Notes under the pieces: generated by a model
The model's database searches: none
What the model saw: the letters and a program-made list of their open reading frames with translations, nothing else
Told to the model about the DNA's origin: nothing
Translations under genes and position numbers: made by a program
Part shown: one piece after another, positions 43,918 to 50,898 of the stretch
How the letters are laid out: each line of letters opens with the position of its first letter
Position numbering within the stretch: the first letter of the stretch is position 1
Source: Vicinamibacterales bacterium
GTDB taxonomy: Bacteria; Acidobacteriota; Vicinamibacteria; Vicinamibacterales; CAVVIG01
Length of the DNA: 64,000 nucleotides
Reading direction: 5' to 3'
NCBI GenBank assembly: GCA_035537875.1
Contig: DATLLJ010000037.1
Coordinates: forward strand, 138,315-202,314

Positions 43918-44613
43918 CTAGTTTTCAGGAGCATCAGCGGAAACCGCCAACCTGCCCGTGTAGAGGGCCATCCCCACCACCGCGTCGACGCCTAACTCGT
44001 GAAGGTCGTCGATTTCGCGCTGGGTCGTAATGCCACCCGCCGCCGTAATGGGCCGGCTGGTAGCCTGGCGCACAGCCCTAATCGCCTCCATGTTGGTCCC
44101 GCCCATCAGACCTTCCGCGTCGACGTGCGTATAGAGGAACTCCCCGCAGAACGGCTCGAGCGCGCGGACGGCATCCACGGCCGTCAGCGGCAGCGACGTT
44201 TTCCATCCATGGATCACGACCTGGCCCCCGCGACTGTCGACGGCCGCGATGATCCGCTCCAGCCCGACCGCCCCGGCCAGCGAGCGGGCGAACACGAGAT
44301 CGGGCCGCCCGTCTTTGAAAAGCGATGAGCCGGCGATAACCTGCCTGGCGCCCGCCGCCAGCACGTCCTGGGCGCGCGTGACAGTGCGGATCCCACCGCC
44401 AACCCGGCAGGAGAGGCGACCAGCAATCTGGCGCACGAGGTCGAGGTTGTCCCCGACCCCCATCGCGGCGTCCAGATCGATGACCTGGACTTTCGGAAAC
44501 CGCGCGAACCGCCGAACCCAGCGAAACACATCGTCGTCTCTGATGGCGAGACGCTCGCCCTGAACGAGCTGCACCACGGCGCCTTCTTTCAGATCGATCG
44601 ACGGGATCAGCAT
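43918..44613 (-). CDS. hisA: ProFAR isomerase (HisA family)
   Basis: MLIPSIDLKEGAVVQL...VIDLDAA...GGGIR...GGIT. (beta/alpha)8 HisA/HisF-like. Last gene of the his operon. Confidence 0.8.
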   Translation of the reverse strand: MLIPSIDLKEGAVVQLVQGERLAIRDDDVFRWVRRFARFPKVQVIDLDAAMGVGDNLDLVRQIAGRLSCRVGGGIRTVTRAQDVLAAGARQVIAGSSLFKDGRPDLVFARSLAGAVGLERIIAAVDSRGGQVVIHGWKTSLPLTAVDAVRALEPFCGEFLYTHVDAEGLMGGTNMEAIRAVRQATSRPITAAGGITTQREIDDLHELGVDAVVGMALYTGRLAVSADAPEN

Positions 44614-44634
44614 CGACGTGACCGCTCCGCCAGT

Positions 44635-45390
44635 TCAGAGGCGGACCGGAATGCCCCTTCCTTGCAAGTGTTCTTTGAGGCTGCGAACACTGGTTTCGGC
44701 GTAATGAAAGATCGACGCGGCGAGCGCGGCGTCGGCTCGTCCCGCTGTGAACACCTCGACGAAGTGGTCCAGGGATCCCGCCCCGCCCGACGCGATGACT
44801 GGTATCGACACCGCTGCCGACACGGCTGCGGTCAATGGGCAGTCGAAACCGACCTTGGTGCCGTCACGATCGATGGAGGTCAGCAGAATCTCTCCTGCGC
44901 CGCGCGCCTCGGCCTCGCGCGCCCACTCCACGGCATCGCGTCCCGCCGCGCTCTGGCCGCTGCGTGCATACACGGCGAATCCCTCGCCCGCCCGCTTCGC
45001 ATCGATGGCCACCACAACCGCCTGGCTGCCGTACCGCTCGGCCAATGTCGTGATCAGGGCAGGATCCGACAGCGCAGCCGTGTTCAGGCTGACCTTGTCG
45101 GCGCCAGCCTCGACCGCAGCGGCGGCGTCGGCCTCGGTCCGAATTCCGCCGCCTACGGCGAGTGGAATGAACAACTCGCGCGCGACGGCGTGGATGGTCT
45201 CGGCGAGCGCGCGACGCTGTTCGAGCGTGGCGGTAATGTCGAGGATGACGAGCTCGTCGATGCCTTCTGTGTTGTACCGGCGCGCGAGCTCAGCCGGGTC
45301 GCCGGCCGACCGCAGCCCTTCGAAGTTCACCCCTTTGACGACGTGACCGTTGCGAACGTCGAGGCAGGCGATGATCCGCTTGGACAGCAT
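44635..45390 (-). CDS. hisF: Imidazole glycerol phosphate synthase, cyclase subunit
   Basis: [23 protein letters not shown]...[10 protein letters not shown]...GGGIR...[10 protein letters not shown]...ASGGAG. Confidence 0.95.
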
Positions 45391-45396
45391 GGGATA

Positions 45397-46020
45397 TCAG
45401 CAGGGCTCTCGAGACGCCCTGACGAAATTTCGCAGGATCGTCAGACCCACTTCGCCCGACTTTTCCGGATGAAACTGCACTCCCGCCACGTGGCCGCGCT
45501 GGACGACGGATGCGAACGGCTCGCCGTGTTCGGTCACCGCAACCGTGTCAAGCGTGACGGGTGCGACGTAACTGTGCGTGAAGTAGACCTGCGCCCCAGA
45601 GGGGATTCCAGCCACGATCGGCGCGTCGCGTTGGATGCGGATATTGTTCCATCCGACATGTGGAACTTTGACGGCGCCTCCGTTCTCGGCCGAGCCGCCT
45701 GACAGTCGATAACACGAGCCGGGCAGCAGGCCCAGTCCCGGGCAGTCAGGTGCTTCGTCGCTGCCCGCAAACAGCCACTGCAGACCGAGGCAGATGCCAA
45801 GGAGGGGACGGCCTGCGGCGACACGCCCTCGTATGGCCTCAACCCATCCACGATCGAGCGCCGAGGTCGCGCCGAAGTGCCCGACGCCCGGAACGACTAT
45901 GGCATCCGCGATATCGAGGTCGCCCGGCGCGCCAGGGTCATACAGCTCGGCGCCGATGGCGGCGAATGCCTTGCGCACCGAGGTCAGGTTACCTGCTTTG
46001 TAGTCGATGAGCGCGATCAC
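45397..46020 (-). CDS. hisH: Imidazole glycerol phosphate synthase, glutamine amidotransferase subunit
   Basis: From GTG 46020 (GTGA overlap with the hisB stop): [15 protein letters not shown]...VVPGVGHF...GICLGLQ...FHPEKS. Confidence 0.9.
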
Positions 46021-46604
46021 AGCAGGCCCTTGGTGCTCGGCAGCATCCGTGCGAGCTGTTTGTCTTTCGAACACGCCACACGTAACGCGCGCGCGAAGGC
46101 CTTGAAGACCGCCTCTATGTGGTGATGGCTGGATCGCCCGTAGAGAACTTTCACGTGCACGTTCGCGCGAGCGCCGAGCGCGAAGCCGTCGAAGAAATCG
46201 TGGACGAGCTCGGTCTGGAGATCTCCGACACGCACGACTCTGACCTTCAGATCCACGACGGCATGAGGTCGTCCGCCGAGGTCCACGGCGGCGACGGCCA
46301 AGGTTTCGTCCATGGGCATGACGAAGTAGCCGGCTCGATTGATGCCGCGCCGCGTTCCGACGGCGCGCGCGACGGCTTCGCCCAGGGCGATACCCATGTC
46401 TTCGACGGTATGGTGCTGATCGACATCGAGGTCGCCCTGGGCGTCGACGCGAAGGTCGAATCCGCCATGCCGCGCAAAGAGCTCGAGCATGTGGTCCAGA
46501 AACCTTATGCCAGTATGGATGGCGTACCGGCCACGGCCCTCGAGCCCGAGGCGAACCACAATCTGCGTTTCCTTCGTCCGTCGCTCGATCAGGGCGCGGC
46601 GCAC
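46017..46604 (-). CDS. hisB: Imidazoleglycerol-phosphate dehydratase (monofunctional)
   Basis: [14 protein letters not shown]...[10 protein letters not shown]...[14 protein letters not shown]...[12 protein letters not shown]. Start proposed at GTG 46604. Confidence 0.9.
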
Positions 46605-47632
46605 AACACCTCTTCCATGGCTGCGATGAACCGGCGCGTGTGCTCGACGATGCCGGTCGCGATCCGGACACATCCGGCGCAGCCAGGCTCGGACGATCGA
46701 TCGCGAACGAAGATCCCTCGGGCAGCCACTCCCTCGACCAGCGCCTTCAGGCGATCCCCCGGGCACACAAGGACGAAGTTCGCGTCGCTCGGCACGTACC
46801 GCAATCCCAGTCGCTCGCAGGCCGCGTACAGCAGGGCCTTCGATTCACGGGTCTGGCGCAGATAGTCCTGCAGGTAATCCTGGTCGGCGAGCGCCGCCTG
46901 CACCGCTGCCACGGCCGCGATACTGACGCTGTAGACCGGTATCGCCGCGCGCACCGGGTTCAACACCTCCGCAGCGCCGACCAGGCAGCCGATGCGCAAG
47001 CCGGCGAGGCCGAAGGCTTTGGAAAAGGTGCGCCCGACGATCACGTTGGGAAAGGCCGCGAGTTCGGGTATGAAGGTCACTCCCGAGAACTCATGGTAAG
47101 CCTCGTCCACGAACACCACCGCCTCTGACGGTACTTGCCGCGCCACCTCTCGAATCGCCCCGAGGGGCATCGATACCCCTGTTGGATTGTTTGGATTGGT
47201 CAAGAAGACCACGCGTGTGCGCGGCGTGATCGCCGACAGGACCTCGTCGAGCGCGAAGCTGAAGTCATCGCGCGGCATGACCTGGACCAGGCGCCCTCCC
47301 ACAACCTCGGTGTCGACTCGATAGATCTCGAACGCGGGCTCCGGGACGACGGCTTCGGGGATCGGCCCGCCGATCGGCGGCCGCAGATACGCGACAGCCA
47401 GCCCCATGATTCCCTCGTCGAGCCCGTTGGTCAGCGCCAGCCGCCCGGGATCGACGCCGAGGTAATGCGCACAGGCACTGGTCGCTGCGGCGTACGGTGG
47501 ATAAAAGCCGATCTCGTCTGCGCGCAGTCGGGCAAGCGCGTCGAGGACGCGCGGCGAACAGCCTGCGGTGTTCTCGTTCTGGTGGAGCCGCAACCCGTCG
47601 TACAGCTCTGGAGGCTTGTCGTAAGCGGTCAT
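46589..47632 (-). CDS. hisC: Histidinol-phosphate aminotransferase
   Basis: LHQNEN...NPNNPTG...VFVDEAY...[15 protein letters not shown], 347 aa. Confidence 0.9.
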
Positions 47633-48873
47633 CGCAGACGTACCTCGATCGATTCGGCGTGCGCAGTCAGCCCCTCCGCGCGCGCGAGCGGCACGATGGT
47701 CGGGCGCAGCCGGGTCAGACCAGCCTTGGTGACGCGCTGAACCAGCATGACCCGCATGAAATCGGCAGCGCTCAAGCCTCCACGAAAACGGGCGGCACCG
47801 GAGGTCGGCAAGACATGATTCGAGCCGGTCGCATAGTCGCCGGCGGCCTGCGCCGTGTAGGGGCCGACAAACACAGCGCCGGCAACCAGACGCTGGCGCG
47901 TGAGCGACTCACGGTCGAGGACAAGGTGCTCCGGAGCGAAACGGTTCGCCAGAGCGACGGCGTCTTCGGCGGAACTGGCGACGATGATCGCGCCATGTGA
48001 AGCGAGCGAACGCCCAACGACGTCCAGACCTGCGGCTTGACGCGAGACGGCGCGGGACACGCGTTCGGCAAACGGGCGGCTCCACGTGATCAGAATCGAG
48101 CGGGCGTCGGGATCGTGCTCCGCTTGCGCCACGAGATCGGCGGCGATCCAGGCCGGGTCCCCGCTGGCGGCGACGATGACAGTCTCCGTCGGCCCGGCAT
48201 AAAAATCGATGGCGCAGTCGCCGGCCACGAGAGACTTCGCAGCGGCGACGTACTTGTTCCCGGGGCCGACGATCTTGTCCACACGCGGTACGGTGGCCGT
48301 TCCGTACGCGAGCGCGGCAACCGCGTGGGCGCCGCCGACGCGGAAGAGTCGGCTCACACCGGCTTCGAGCGCCGCCGCCATCACGACGGGCTCGGGCCGC
48401 GGGCACACCGCGATGACCTCCGCAACACCGGCGACCCGCGCGGGCACGGCGGTCATCAGCAGCGACGAGGGGAGCGGGAAGCGCCCGCCGGGCACATAAC
48501 AGCCGACGCTCGCAATAGGTTCGACCCGCTGCTCGACGGTTACTCCCGGTGTCACCTGCACGTCCCAGTGTCGGGGAATCTGCTTGAAAGCGACGCGGGC
48601 AATGTTTCGGGCGGCCTCCTGCAGCGCCCGCCGCACGCGTGGATCGACCTGCCGGGCGCGGTCGCGCATCTCGTCCGGCGTCACCTCGAACGGGGGCGAG
48701 GTGCCGTCGAACCTGCGCGCAAAGGCCGCGAGCGCCCGATCGCCGCCTGCGCGCACCCGGTCCACGATGGTCCGCACCCGCCGGTCGAGGGCGTGATCCC
48801 CAGCGGCGCGGCGCGTCAGCAGGCGTTCGACCGCGCGAGTGTCGCCGGCCCTGACGATGGTCAACCGCTTCAC
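47629..48873 (-). CDS. hisD: Histidinol dehydrogenase
   Basis: GCYVPGG..YPSS-like segment (VGCYVPGGRFPLPSSLLM), AQAEHDPDA and DYATGSNHVLPT. GTG start. Confidence 0.9.
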   Translation of the reverse strand: MKRLTIVRAGDTRAVERLLTRRAAGDHALDRRVRTIVDRVRAGGDRALAAFARRFDGTSPPFEVTPDEMRDRARQVDPRVRRALQEAARNIARVAFKQIPRHWDVQVTPGVTVEQRVEPIASVGCYVPGGRFPLPSSLLMTAVPARVAGVAEVIAVCPRPEPVVMAAALEAGVSRLFRVGGAHAVAALAYGTATVPRVDKIVGPGNKYVAAAKSLVAGDCAIDFYAGPTETVIVAASGDPAWIAADLVAQAEHDPDARSILITWSRPFAERVSRAVSRQAAGLDVVGRSLASHGAIIVASSAEDAVALANRFAPEHLVLDRESLTRQRLVAGAVFVGPYTAQAAGDYATGSNHVLPTSGAARFRGGLSAADFMRVMLVQRVTKAGLTRLRPTIVPLARAEGLTAHAESIEVRLR

Positions 48874-48934
48874 GTGGCTCCCTTCCTGCCGCGCTCACTC
48901 ATCGGTGTGTCTCTTTCCCGCGACCCAACGCAGC

Positions 48935-49822
48935 CTACAACACGATCTTGTTGAGCGGGTATTCGACGATGCCCTGCGCGCGCGCCGCCTTGAGCTTCGG
49001 AATCAGATCGCGCACCGTCCGCTCCTCGATGATCGTGTTGACGGCCACCCACTCTTCGTCGCTCAGCGACGAGATGGTCGGTCGTTGCAGCGCCGGCAGC
49101 AACGAGAGCACCATCGCCAAATCCTGCCGCCGCACGTTGAGCATCAACCCCACCCGTCCGTGCGCTTCGATTGCGGCTTTGAGCAGCAGGGCCACGTTTT
49201 CGATCTTGGTGCGCTTCCACATGTCGCCGAGCGCGGTGTGGTTGGCGATGAGCTGCGTGTTCGATTCCATCACGGTGTCGAGAATACGAAGCCGGTTCGC
49301 GCGCAGCGTCGAACCCGTTTCCGTCGCTTCAACGATGCCGTCGGCGAGCACGGGTGGCTTGACTTCGGTGGCGCCCCAGGAGAACTCGACGTGCGCCTTC
49401 ACGCCGTGACGCTTGAAGTAGGCGCGCGTGACGCGCACCAGCTCGGTGGCGATCGTCTTGTCGCCGAAATCCGTCGGCGATCGCAGGGATGAGTCCTCAG
49501 GTGCGGCGAGCACCCACCGGACTTTTCCAAAGCTCTGTTTCGCATAGACGAGATCGGCAATACTCGTCAGCACGCCGGTCGTGCCGTCACCGAGCTCGTG
49601 CTCGGCGATCCAGTCCTGACCCGTCAGCCCCGCGTCGAGCACGCCGTCCGAGACGTAGCGCGCCATCTCCTGAGCCCGGATCAGCATGCATTCGATCTCG
49701 GGGTCGTCCACGGTGGGGAAGTACGATCTCGAGCTGACGTACAGGTTGAACCCGGCGCGCGCGAACAGTTGAACGGTCGCGTCCTGAAGCGACCCCTTGG
49801 GGATGCCGAGTTTGAGTTTCAT
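48935..49822 (-). CDS. hisG: ATP phosphoribosyltransferase, long form with C-terminal regulatory domain
   Basis: [16 protein letters not shown]...[24 protein letters not shown]. 295 aa. Confidence 0.9.
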
Positions 49823-50154
49823 ACGAGGGTACCTTCAGCCGTCATGCGGCGGAAAAAACAGGTGCGCTCTCCGGTATGGCACACCTTTTCGTCGCCCAGG
49901 CATTTCACCCTGACGAGGACCGTGTCTTCATCGCAGTCGACGAGGATGTCGACGACCTGCAGGCGGTTCCCTGATGTTTCCCCCTTCACCCACAGCGCAT
50001 TGCGCGTTCGGCTGAAGAAGGTGGCGAAGCCGCTGCTCCGCGTCAGGGCCAGCGCCTGGTCGTTCATGAAGCCGACCATGAGGACCTCGCCGGTCTCGGA
50101 GTCCTGGATGACTGCCGGGATGAGGCCTGCGAGTTTCGAGTAGTCGATTGCCAT
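49819..50154 (-). CDS. hisI: Phosphoribosyl-AMP cyclohydrolase (HisI domain only, no HisE fusion)
   Basis: From ATG 50154: [31 protein letters not shown]...WVKGETSGN...DCDEDTVL...[10 protein letters not shown]. 111 aa. Confidence 0.9.
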
Positions 50155-50170
50155 AAAGAAACCTGCCCAA

Positions 50171-50200
50171 CAAACAAAAACCCCGCCGGTTTCGGCGGGG
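50171..50200 (-). terminator. Intrinsic terminator of the his leader (attenuator)
   Basis: Minus-strand RNA CCCCGCCG-AAAC-CGGCGGGG followed by UUUUUGUUUG. It lies 34 nt after the leader stop and 16 nt before the hisI ATG. Confidence 0.75.
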
Positions 50201-50234
50201 TGGCATGTCGTTTCGTCCTGATCGACCGAGGACC

Positions 50235-50315
50235 CTAGACCACGCGCAACTCCGCCACGGCCGGCCCGAAGGCGGCGTGATGGTGATGGGTTGCGTGGTG
50301 GTGAGGTGTGAACAT
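50235..50315 (-). CDS. His-rich leader peptide of the his operon (hisL-like)
   Basis: ATG 50315: MFTPHHHATHHHHAAFGPAVAELRVV stop. Seven His within residues 5-13. Too short for the ORF track. Confidence 0.7.
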   Translation of the reverse strand: MFTPHHHATHHHHAAFGPAVAELRVV

Positions 50316-50325
50316 CGAACGCCTG

Positions 50326-50355
50326 AGCGTAGTGCATCGGCCGATGTTGTGTCAA
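50326..50355 (-). promoter_or_regulatory. Sigma70-like promoter for the his leader
   Basis: Minus strand TTGACA (50355-50350), 18-nt spacer, TACGCT (50331-50326). Only 10 nt separate the -10 from the leader ATG and there is no SD, so the transcript would be nearly leaderless. Confidence 0.4.
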
Positions 50356-50474
50356 CGACGTGCCCGCTCGAGCGACGCAACGGCTAGGGCGATTCGAGCG
50401 AGGGGCGGGCGATGATGCGCGTGGTGGGTGCCGGCCACGTGCGGACCAGTCGTCGCATCGGTCAGTTGGTGGTA

Positions 50475-50504
50475 TTGACTATTGTACTAGTACATTAGTA
50501 TAAT
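50475..50504 (+). promoter_or_regulatory. Sigma70-like promoter with an embedded perfect 12-bp palindrome (likely YtrA-type autoregulatory operator)
   Basis: TTGACT (50475-50480), TGTACTAGTACA (50483-50494), TATAAT (50499-50504). The -10 overlaps the annotated ATG at 50503. Confidence 0.55.
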
Positions 50505-50898
50505 GACGGGTGTGAGCGTGGTAACCATCGACCCGCGCGACCGGACGCCGATTTACGCGCAGCTCGACCGGGGGTTGCGCGCGGCCGTGGCGTCGGGCCG
50601 GCTGAGGCCCGGCGATCAGCTGCCCACCGTCCGGCAGCTCGCCGTGGAGCTTCGTATCAACGCGAACACGGTGGCTCGGGTCTATGCCGAGCTCGAACGG
50701 GGTGGGGTGCTCGAGACCCGCCGCGGCGTCGGATCCTTCATCAGCGCGTCGGCCCGGAGCGAGGCGAGGCCTGCGCAGGAGCGTACCAGACGGCTTCGTG
50801 CTTTTGCGACGCGGGTTCTCGCGGATGCAGAGGCGGCCGGCTTCACCATCGGCGACGTGCTCGCCGAGCTTGCCACCCATCGACAGAAAGGAGCATGA
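50503..50898 (+). CDS. GntR family transcriptional regulator, YtrA subfamily (short C-terminal domain)
   Basis: PIYAQLDRGLRAAVASGRLRPGDQLPTVRQLAVELRINANTVARVYAELERGGVLETRRGVGSF. 131 aa. The true start may be in-frame GTG 50512 or 50518 if the promoter call is right. Confidence 0.8.
   Translation: MTGVSVVTIDPRDRTPIYAQLDRGLRAAVASGRLRPGDQLPTVRQLAVELRINANTVARVYAELERGGVLETRRGVGSFISASARSEARPAQERTRRLRAFATRVLADAEAAGFTIGDVLAELATHRQKGA

Follow-up and report, generated by a model that had tools for sequence, protein, structure and literature searches.

A probable leader-peptide histidine attenuator ahead of the hisIGDCBHFA operon in Vicinamibacteria-like Acidobacteriota

The hisL leader of Escherichia coli carries 7 consecutive His codons, and other known RNA control of his genes uses the T-box leader, a tRNA-sensing riboswitch that has a specifier loop and a T-box and contains no translated ORF. 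In the enterobacterial hisL system (Rfam His_leader, RF00514), a short ORF with His codons stands before the his operon and is followed by an intrinsic terminator, and the position of the ribosome is read out through alternative 1:2, 2:3 and 3:4 pairings of the leader RNA. In the Firmicutes, candidate his attenuators have been reported in the Bacillus cereus group, Peptostreptococcaceae and Erysipelotrichales (Ashniev et al. 2022, PMC9413887), and a His leader of hisS/hisZ has been reported in bacilli (Naville and Gautheret 2010, PMC2965389). In Actinobacteria, the regions ahead of his genes have been surveyed as well, and a conserved RNA element was not found there (PMC1262725). The leaderless poly-Cys short ORFs of mycobacteria are described as acting on translation by sequestration of the ribosome-binding site (Canestrari et al., bioRxiv 10.1101/834739). 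How genes are regulated in Acidobacteriota has hardly been explored, and our full-text search of open-access papers returned no description of a His leader peptide or of His attenuation in Acidobacteria or Acidobacteriota.

The locus described here lies on the minus strand of a 64-kb stretch of DNA (the window, in what follows), and it resembles enterobacterial hisL in having a short His-codon ORF before a his operon, an intrinsic terminator behind that ORF, and predicted alternative 1:2, 2:3 and 3:4 pairings that the ribosome position could read out (Table 1). We consider it very probable, judging from the sequence and from folding models, that the element is a functional His attenuator, which controls transcription of the hisIGDCBHFA operon through a leader peptide and the ribosome that translates it; the hisL-like architecture that an earlier note on this DNA had proposed is supported by its anatomy, its conservation, the covariation within its family and ribosome-masked folds. 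The locus also differs from enterobacterial hisL in several respects, since its His run is interrupted (HHHATHHHH), its operon begins with hisI rather than hisG, and its predicted promoter abuts the start codon and leaves no room for a Shine-Dalgarno sequence. Sequence or structure similarity to RF00514 was not detectable, with no match at the gathering score in the window and none at E<=10 in 49900-50700. The T-box likewise gave no match at the gathering score or at E<=10, which indicates that the element is not a T-box, and neither the window nor any of 20 related loci had a match to an Rfam family at gathering score. Weak Rfam matches to rnk_pseudo, anti-hemB and Trp_leader were set aside, as they represented merely the terminator hairpin. 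The Firmicutes His leaders (PMC9413887, PMC2965389) are similar in that a lineage-specific His peptide with a terminator and antiterminator was recognized by comparative genomics without an RF00514 match, but they belong to another phylum and to an unrelated sequence family, and the Firmicutes his attenuators have three to five consecutive His codons (PMC9413887), whereas the Acidobacteriota family has 4-7 His in 9 codons, usually interrupted.

Table 1. Positions of the leader elements and of the operon in the window; pairings and promoter hexamers are predictions
Feature	Position	Strand	Remarks
Predicted -35 hexamer TTGACA	50350..50355	minus	position conserved in family
Predicted -10 hexamer TACGCT	50326..50331	minus	family consensus TAGGCT/TACGCT; ends 10 nt before leader ATG
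Leader ORF (hisL analogue)	50235..50315	minus	26 codons plus stop, MFTPHHHATHHHHAAFGPAVAELRVV; homologous to 34 relatives (leave-one-out nhmmer profile)
Region 1, regulatory His codons 5-7 and 10-13	50277..50303	minus	CACCACCACGCAACCC, predicted to be able to pair with region 2 without ribosome
Local hairpin GCCGCC-UUCG-GG(C)CGGC	50260..50276	minus	directly after His run; predicted fold
Region 2, antiterminator 5' strand	50239..50257	minus	UGGCGGAGUUGCGCGUGGU; last 7 leader codons; partly mimics terminator 3' arm
Hairpin GUCCU-CGGUCGAUC-AGGAC	50215..50233	minus	caps antiterminator helix; sequence not conserved across family
Region 3, antiterminator 3' strand	50193..50211	minus	ACGACAUGCCACCCCGCCG; overlaps terminator 5' arm
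Intrinsic terminator (3:4)	50169..50201	minus	ACCCCGCCG-AAAC-CGGCGGGGU plus UUUUGUUUGUU; 9-bp stem, 8 G-C pairs, U-tract (consensus scan)
hisIGDCBHFA operon (hisI, hisG, hisD, hisC, hisB, hisH, hisF, hisA)	43918..50154	minus	ORF list and Pfam scan

In the sequence, the ATG at 50315 (minus strand) opens exactly the 26-codon ORF upstream of hisI that the earlier note had described, with the codons ATG TTC ACA CCT CAC CAC CAC GCA ACC CAT CAC CAT CAC GCC GCC TTC GGG CCG GCC GTG GCG GAG TTG CGC GTG GTC and a TAG stop at 50237-50235. The 7 His in 9 codons counted there are CAC CAC CAC at 50303-50295 and CAT CAC CAT CAC at 50288-50277. The spacing also agrees, as the stop codon is followed by 34 nt, then by CCCCGCCG-AAAC-CGGCGGGG and TTTTTGTTTG, and 16 nt later by the hisI ATG at 50154. 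The first gene, hisI, occupies 50154-49819, and the Pfam domains follow contiguously on the minus strand in the order PRA-CH (HisI), HisG and HisG_C, histidinol dehydrogenase, class I/II aminotransferase (HisC), IGPD (HisB), GATase (HisH) and two His_biosynth proteins (HisF, HisA). The operon thus opens with hisI, in contrast to the enterobacterial gene order, which begins with hisG. The HisI protein is of the monofunctional kind, with 111 aa and PRA-CH as its sole domain, and because the operon, from 43918 to 50154, encodes no PRA-PH (hisE) domain, hisE must be elsewhere. Upstream of the leader lies a divergent gene for a GntR-family regulator (50503-50898), followed by one for an SPFH/Band 7 protein, according to Pfam. 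Since this GntR-like gene is divergent, the terminator cannot belong to a preceding gene, and its reading as the end of the upstream gene was ruled out; its place is downstream of an apparent divergent promoter region.

Within the window, the combination is exceptional. Whether the cut-off is set at 6 or at 7 His in 9 codons, the six frames contain a single such stretch, which is that of the leader ORF; 20 shuffles of the window (65% G+C) gave zero stretches with at least 6 His in 9 codons. Under stringent terminator criteria (stem of at least 7, at least 5 G-C pairs and at least 6 T in the tail), just two terminator-like hairpins were found in the 64 kb, and the one in the leader is clearly better. 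The best terminator of the window therefore stands in a 5' leader directly behind the sole poly-His frame and ahead of the his operon. Because the sole 7-His-in-9 stretch and the strongest intrinsic terminator fall at one place, this locus is not a product of chance. The leader hairpin (50201-50180) has a predicted energy of -19 to -22 kcal/mol, and 25 nt lie between the end of the terminator and the hisI AUG. The second stringent hairpin (47895-47874, minus) is located within the hisD coding region. As canonical intrinsic terminators are very rare in the window, most of its genes evidently end without a classical terminator. Two other His-rich frames (11831, plus; 39186, minus) lie within long ORFs, have no more than 5 His and show no stringent terminator-like hairpin nearby, and we took them to be chance occurrences. 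The same applies to a family-profile match at 39190-39105 (minus, E=0.0026), which coincides with a 5-His-in-9 frame inside long ORFs.

To examine relatives, the HisI protein was used as a query against one genome per GTDB species and JGI metagenomes, hisI was located at 160 loci, and the 400 nt upstream were searched for a short ORF with at least 4 His in 9 codons and for a terminator. The closest HisI matches were MAGs labelled Vicinamibacterales, Vicinamibacteria or Acidobacteriota, with 65-80% identity, and the best matches thus bear out the Acidobacteriota lineage on which the earlier note had hung its claim of an unusual host. An identical HisI protein was found solely on metagenome contigs, including one in JGI 3300038441. 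Among the 51 usable loci with HisI at least 61% identical, 44 have the His ORF with a downstream terminator, 5 have the His ORF only and 2 have neither, while for the 101 usable loci with more distant HisI these numbers are 3, 6 and 92, respectively. The earlier note had staked its reading beforehand on the His-rich micro-ORF being kept in relatives, and it is kept at 49 of the 51 close loci and is absent at 92 of the 101 distant ones; the background of windows with at least 5 His is 0.008 per 400 nt outside hisI upstream regions. A profile HMM built from 34 relatives, with the window left out, matched the window end to end from 50315 to 50172 (E=6.6e-18), so the element belongs to a conserved homologous family. 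The leader peptides of relatives, such as MFVATRRHHVHHHHGRHGRSVELRVR, MFLRHHHVHHHGSCGCGPAELHAI and MSTVLHHAHHHHHGHLAGWEHCAR, again carry 4-7 His in 9 codons in mostly interrupted runs, and at the peptide level the His run alone is conserved.

Several loci depart from this pattern. Two of the close relatives (L017 and L115) have no detectable His ORF, and L017 retains the terminator; five others (L088, L096, L100, L113 and L117) have the His ORF and no terminator by the criteria used. These exceptions may be due to decay, to the thresholds of the detector, or to a different output mechanism. Conversely, the nine distant loci with a His ORF come from Bryobacterales (L019, L021, L024, L025), Armatimonadota (L016), Chthoniobacterales (L022) and metagenome contigs (L121, L123, L126), and they may well be real too, being either homologous to the Vicinamibacteria family or convergent with it. 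L014 is also among the distant loci with His-rich micro-ORFs before hisI, of which MLNRSVSRHRHHHHRHPLPRRAAV and LLSILVAQHHHHHVVNHCGASE are examples, and the terminators in this group are strong in some members and weak in others.

We found covariation for the 3:4 and 2:3 pairings and weakly for 1:2. For the terminator (3:4), RNAalifold on 35 aligned sequences returned a consensus consisting solely of the 9-bp terminator helix, with compensatory changes at 5 of its 9 pairs, e.g., C-G to U-A twice and C-G to G-C once. For the antiterminator (2:3), we preferred alignment-free duplex permutation tests to column covariation, because the pairing register shifts from lineage to lineage and the alignment places the window out of step. 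Among 41 sequences, the 3' part of the leader paired with its own terminator region with a mean energy of -27.6 kcal/mol, compared with -23.9 +/- 0.49 for permuted partners, and 0 of 20,000 permutations attained the observed value; the family mean z against dinucleotide shuffles was -1.9. The nature of the covariation can be seen in individual lineages: where the terminator has CCCCGCC, the leader has GGCGGAG or CCGGCAGGA, and where the terminator has GGCCTCGCCGA, the leader has TCGGCGGGCC. The same correspondence is found at L013 (terminator GGCCCGCC, leader GGGTGGGCC) and at L016 (terminator CACCGC, leader GCGGTG). In the MAFFT register, 77% of cells were paired for the antiterminator helix and the hairpin after the His run together, against at most 48% in slid controls. 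The antiterminator helix alone was 76% paired, but with a change on both sides in just 2 of 8 pairs, which is partly due to the shifted registers used by the lineages. For the hairpin that follows the His run, two-sided changes were seen at 6 of 6 aligned pairs in the family alignment, in which the copy of the window is placed by MAFFT in a shifted register, and by analogy with enterobacterial leaders this hairpin may serve as an RNA polymerase pause hairpin.

Ribosome-masked folds, in which the RNA up to 12 nt past the A-site codon was removed and the remainder was folded as it stands prior to synthesis of the terminator 3' arm, were used to follow the effect of the ribosome. When the ribosome was placed on a His codon of the window, UGGCGG.GU.GCG.GU.GU of region 2 paired with AC.AC.UGC.AC.CCGCCG of region 3, capped by the GUCCU...AGGAC hairpin, which was located at 50233-50215 between the arms, just where the earlier note had drawn it. 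The pairing of CGGCCGUGG with CCACCCCGCCG claimed there (CGGC/GCCG plus GUGGCG/UGCCAC) was recovered in the ViennaRNA minimum-energy fold with the ribosome on His codon 13. The 5' arm of the terminator was sequestered at 8 and 6 of its 9 nt with the ribosome on the first and the last His codon, respectively, at 4 of 9 with the ribosome on the stop codon, and at 0 of 9 without a ribosome; a ribosome at the stop codon covers region 2, and in the masked fold of the window the terminator alone can form. Over 41 non-identical family members, the mean sequestered share of this arm was 0.81 at the first His, 0.70 at the last His, 0.26 at the stop codon and 0.62 without a ribosome. The modelled 2:3 geometry of the window fits the classical scheme, in which region 2 is free at a His stall and blocked at the stop codon.

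The duplex of the window itself is less convincing. Its own 2:3 duplex (-22.3 kcal/mol) does not exceed dinucleotide shuffles in strength (z=-0.65), and with 82% of cross-family partners the pairing is as good as with its own partner or better; G+C-rich sequence pairs readily by chance. The antiterminator of the window is imperfect and is not significant by itself, and the unconstrained fold of the 196-nt leader (z=-1.39) is uninformative alone. The mutually exclusive antiterminator that the earlier note had drawn for this DNA thus stands at the level of the family, where it is borne out by covariation with the terminator and by the ribosome-masked folds; in the window alone, its pairing strength is not above that of shuffled controls.

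In the fold without a ribosome, CACCACCACGCAACCC of the His-codon region in the window pairs with GGAGUUGCGCGUGGU, and the terminator arm is fully unsequestered. The energy of this 1:2 duplex ranks second among 41 partners in the window, and over the family the cognate mean is -21.97 against -20.73 +/- 0.48 for permuted partners, with 125 of 20,000 permutations reaching the observed value. However, this 1:2 protection differs among the family members, many of which are predicted to sequester the 5' arm even without a ribosome (0.62). The terminated fold is more stable than the best antiterminated fold by 11.7-12.5 kcal/mol with a stalled ribosome and by about 20-21 kcal/mol without stalling. 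Since the terminated fold stays more stable at equilibrium, read-through must be kinetic, with the antiterminator forming first. The same holds for the trp and his attenuators of E. coli, in which the terminated fold is likewise more stable at equilibrium.

These elements suggest the following mechanism, in which actual termination and the response to histidine are what we infer. Transcription would start a few nt upstream of the leader AUG, and a ribosome would translate the 26-codon leader. When His-tRNA(His) is ample, the ribosome would reach the UAG and cover region 2, the terminator hairpin would then form, and RNA polymerase would stop at the U-tract ahead of hisI. Under a shortage of charged tRNA(His), the ribosome would stall on the seven His codons and leave region 2 free to pair with region 3, which contains the 5' arm of the terminator, and this 2:3 pairing would block the terminator and allow read-through into hisI. 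Without a ribosome, the His-codon region of the window sequence would pair with region 2, and termination would again be favoured.

The start of the leader has features of its own. Ahead of the leader start codon, 36 of the 41 family members carry the pattern TTGnnn-17/18 nt-TAnnnT, which occurs at 23 of 5000 random positions, and the gap between hexamer and start codon is 8-10 nt in 33 of the 36 promoter matches. The leader promoter was missing from the output of the sigma-70 scan, because TACGCT matches TATAAT at 3 of 6 positions, and it was recovered through its conservation in the family. Since the -10 hexamer ends 10 nt before the ATG, a normal distance from -10 to the transcription start, which we place from promoter spacing, would give a 5' UTR of about 2-4 nt, and no Shine-Dalgarno sequence is visible before the leader ATG. 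We thus take near-leaderless initiation of the sensing leader ORF to be probable. A TANNNT motif near the start codon was interpreted as a sign of leaderless genes by Zheng et al. (2011, PMC3160421), who put the share of such genes at 9.7-19.4% in three Acidobacteria. A promoter that abuts the start codon also supports translation of the His frame.

The probable near-leaderless start is also a reason to consider that the leader ORF senses histidine while control is mainly translational or exerted via Rho instead of the intrinsic terminator; stalling of the ribosome would undo a structure occluding the hisI ribosome-binding site, or uncoupled translation would admit Rho. The promoter spacing recalls the mycobacterial Cys attenuators, in which the transcript opens with a short sensing ORF enriched in the amino acid that the downstream genes produce, and ribosome stalling there remodels the RNA that follows (bioRxiv 10.1101/834739). 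The five close loci with a His ORF and no terminator by the criteria used, as well as several Bryobacterales-like loci with weak terminators only, also speak for such an output. However, we regard it as improbable, because a strong G+C-rich hairpin with a U-tract is kept in 44 of the 51 close loci, with compensatory changes. In addition, the terminator ends 25 nt ahead of the hisI AUG, and the stretch between the U-tract and this AUG is unpaired in all predicted folds of the window. The window element differs from the mycobacterial ones, which are described as acting on translation, in having a canonical intrinsic terminator, and near-leaderless initiation is suggested here by promoter spacing.

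It is highly improbable, in our view, that the ORF encodes a functional small protein, e.g., a metal-binding peptide, or that the transcript is a trans-acting small RNA, with its position before hisI incidental or attenuation secondary. A His run would bind metals, and attenuator-derived RNAs and leader peptides with functions in trans are known, e.g., rnTrpL and peTrpL of Sinorhizobium (PMC6614838, PMC7298713). However, the peptide is poorly conserved beyond the His run, the conserved part being the nucleotides complementary to the terminator arm, and among the loci examined the element occurs solely upstream of hisI. The idea that a G+C-rich intergenic region with CAC/CAT repeats and a hairpin arose by chance and has no regulatory role is scarcely credible, for although the antiterminator of the window is indistinguishable from shuffled controls and the whole-leader z is only -1.39, the element is unique in the window, kept at 49 of the 51 close loci but at 9 of the 101 distant ones, and matched by its family profile at E=6.6e-18, and the comparative data, including the family covariation, already contradict it.

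With leader-peptide attenuation of the his operon as the preferred reading, the novelty lies in the lineage, in the RNA family and in a leader that probably starts without a Shine-Dalgarno sequence, and the mechanism is the textbook one. From sequence comparison, the element appears to represent a new and uncatalogued sequence family in Vicinamibacteria-like Acidobacteriota. We see roughly even odds for the wider proposal of an undescribed his attenuator RNA family, not in Rfam, that would extend throughout Vicinamibacteria, with related or convergent elements in Bryobacterales, Armatimonadota and Chthoniobacterales, and whose sensing ORF would begin about 2-4 nt from the transcription start. 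The family offers a concrete and well-conserved cis-regulatory RNA with about 50 examples and a clear and testable mechanism, and it would extend classical leader-peptide attenuation to another phylum. Genetic work on Acidobacteriota may also gain from it a part that responds to histidine. The predicted promoter abutting the start codon poses the testable question of how RNA polymerase is kept in step with a ribosome that has no Shine-Dalgarno sequence to bind. If the sensing ORF is truly near-leaderless, the regulatory ribosome would have to load in leaderless fashion on the nascent 5' end, without a Shine-Dalgarno sequence, and the first ribosome would be coupled to RNA polymerase in a manner that is not known from amino-acid attenuators of the terminator type.

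The 187-nt divergent intergenic region (50316-50502) appears to hold two back-to-back promoters, of which the his leader promoter on the minus strand is predicted as above. On the plus strand, a near-consensus sigma-70 site, TTGACT-18-TATAAT, is found at 50475-50504 with 11 of 12 matches, and its TATAAT has two bases in common with the ATG (50503) of the GntR-like gene. Because of this overlap, the site is not the promoter of the GntR-like gene if the ATG at 50503 is the true start. The family could be entered in Rfam and built into annotation pipelines, which at present overlook the micro-ORF or merge it into an over-long hisI. In the window, the ORF list holds a TTG-started ORF of 178 aa (50355-49819, minus) that spans the leader, the terminator and hisI, and an automatic gene caller could over-extend hisI and thereby hide the attenuator.
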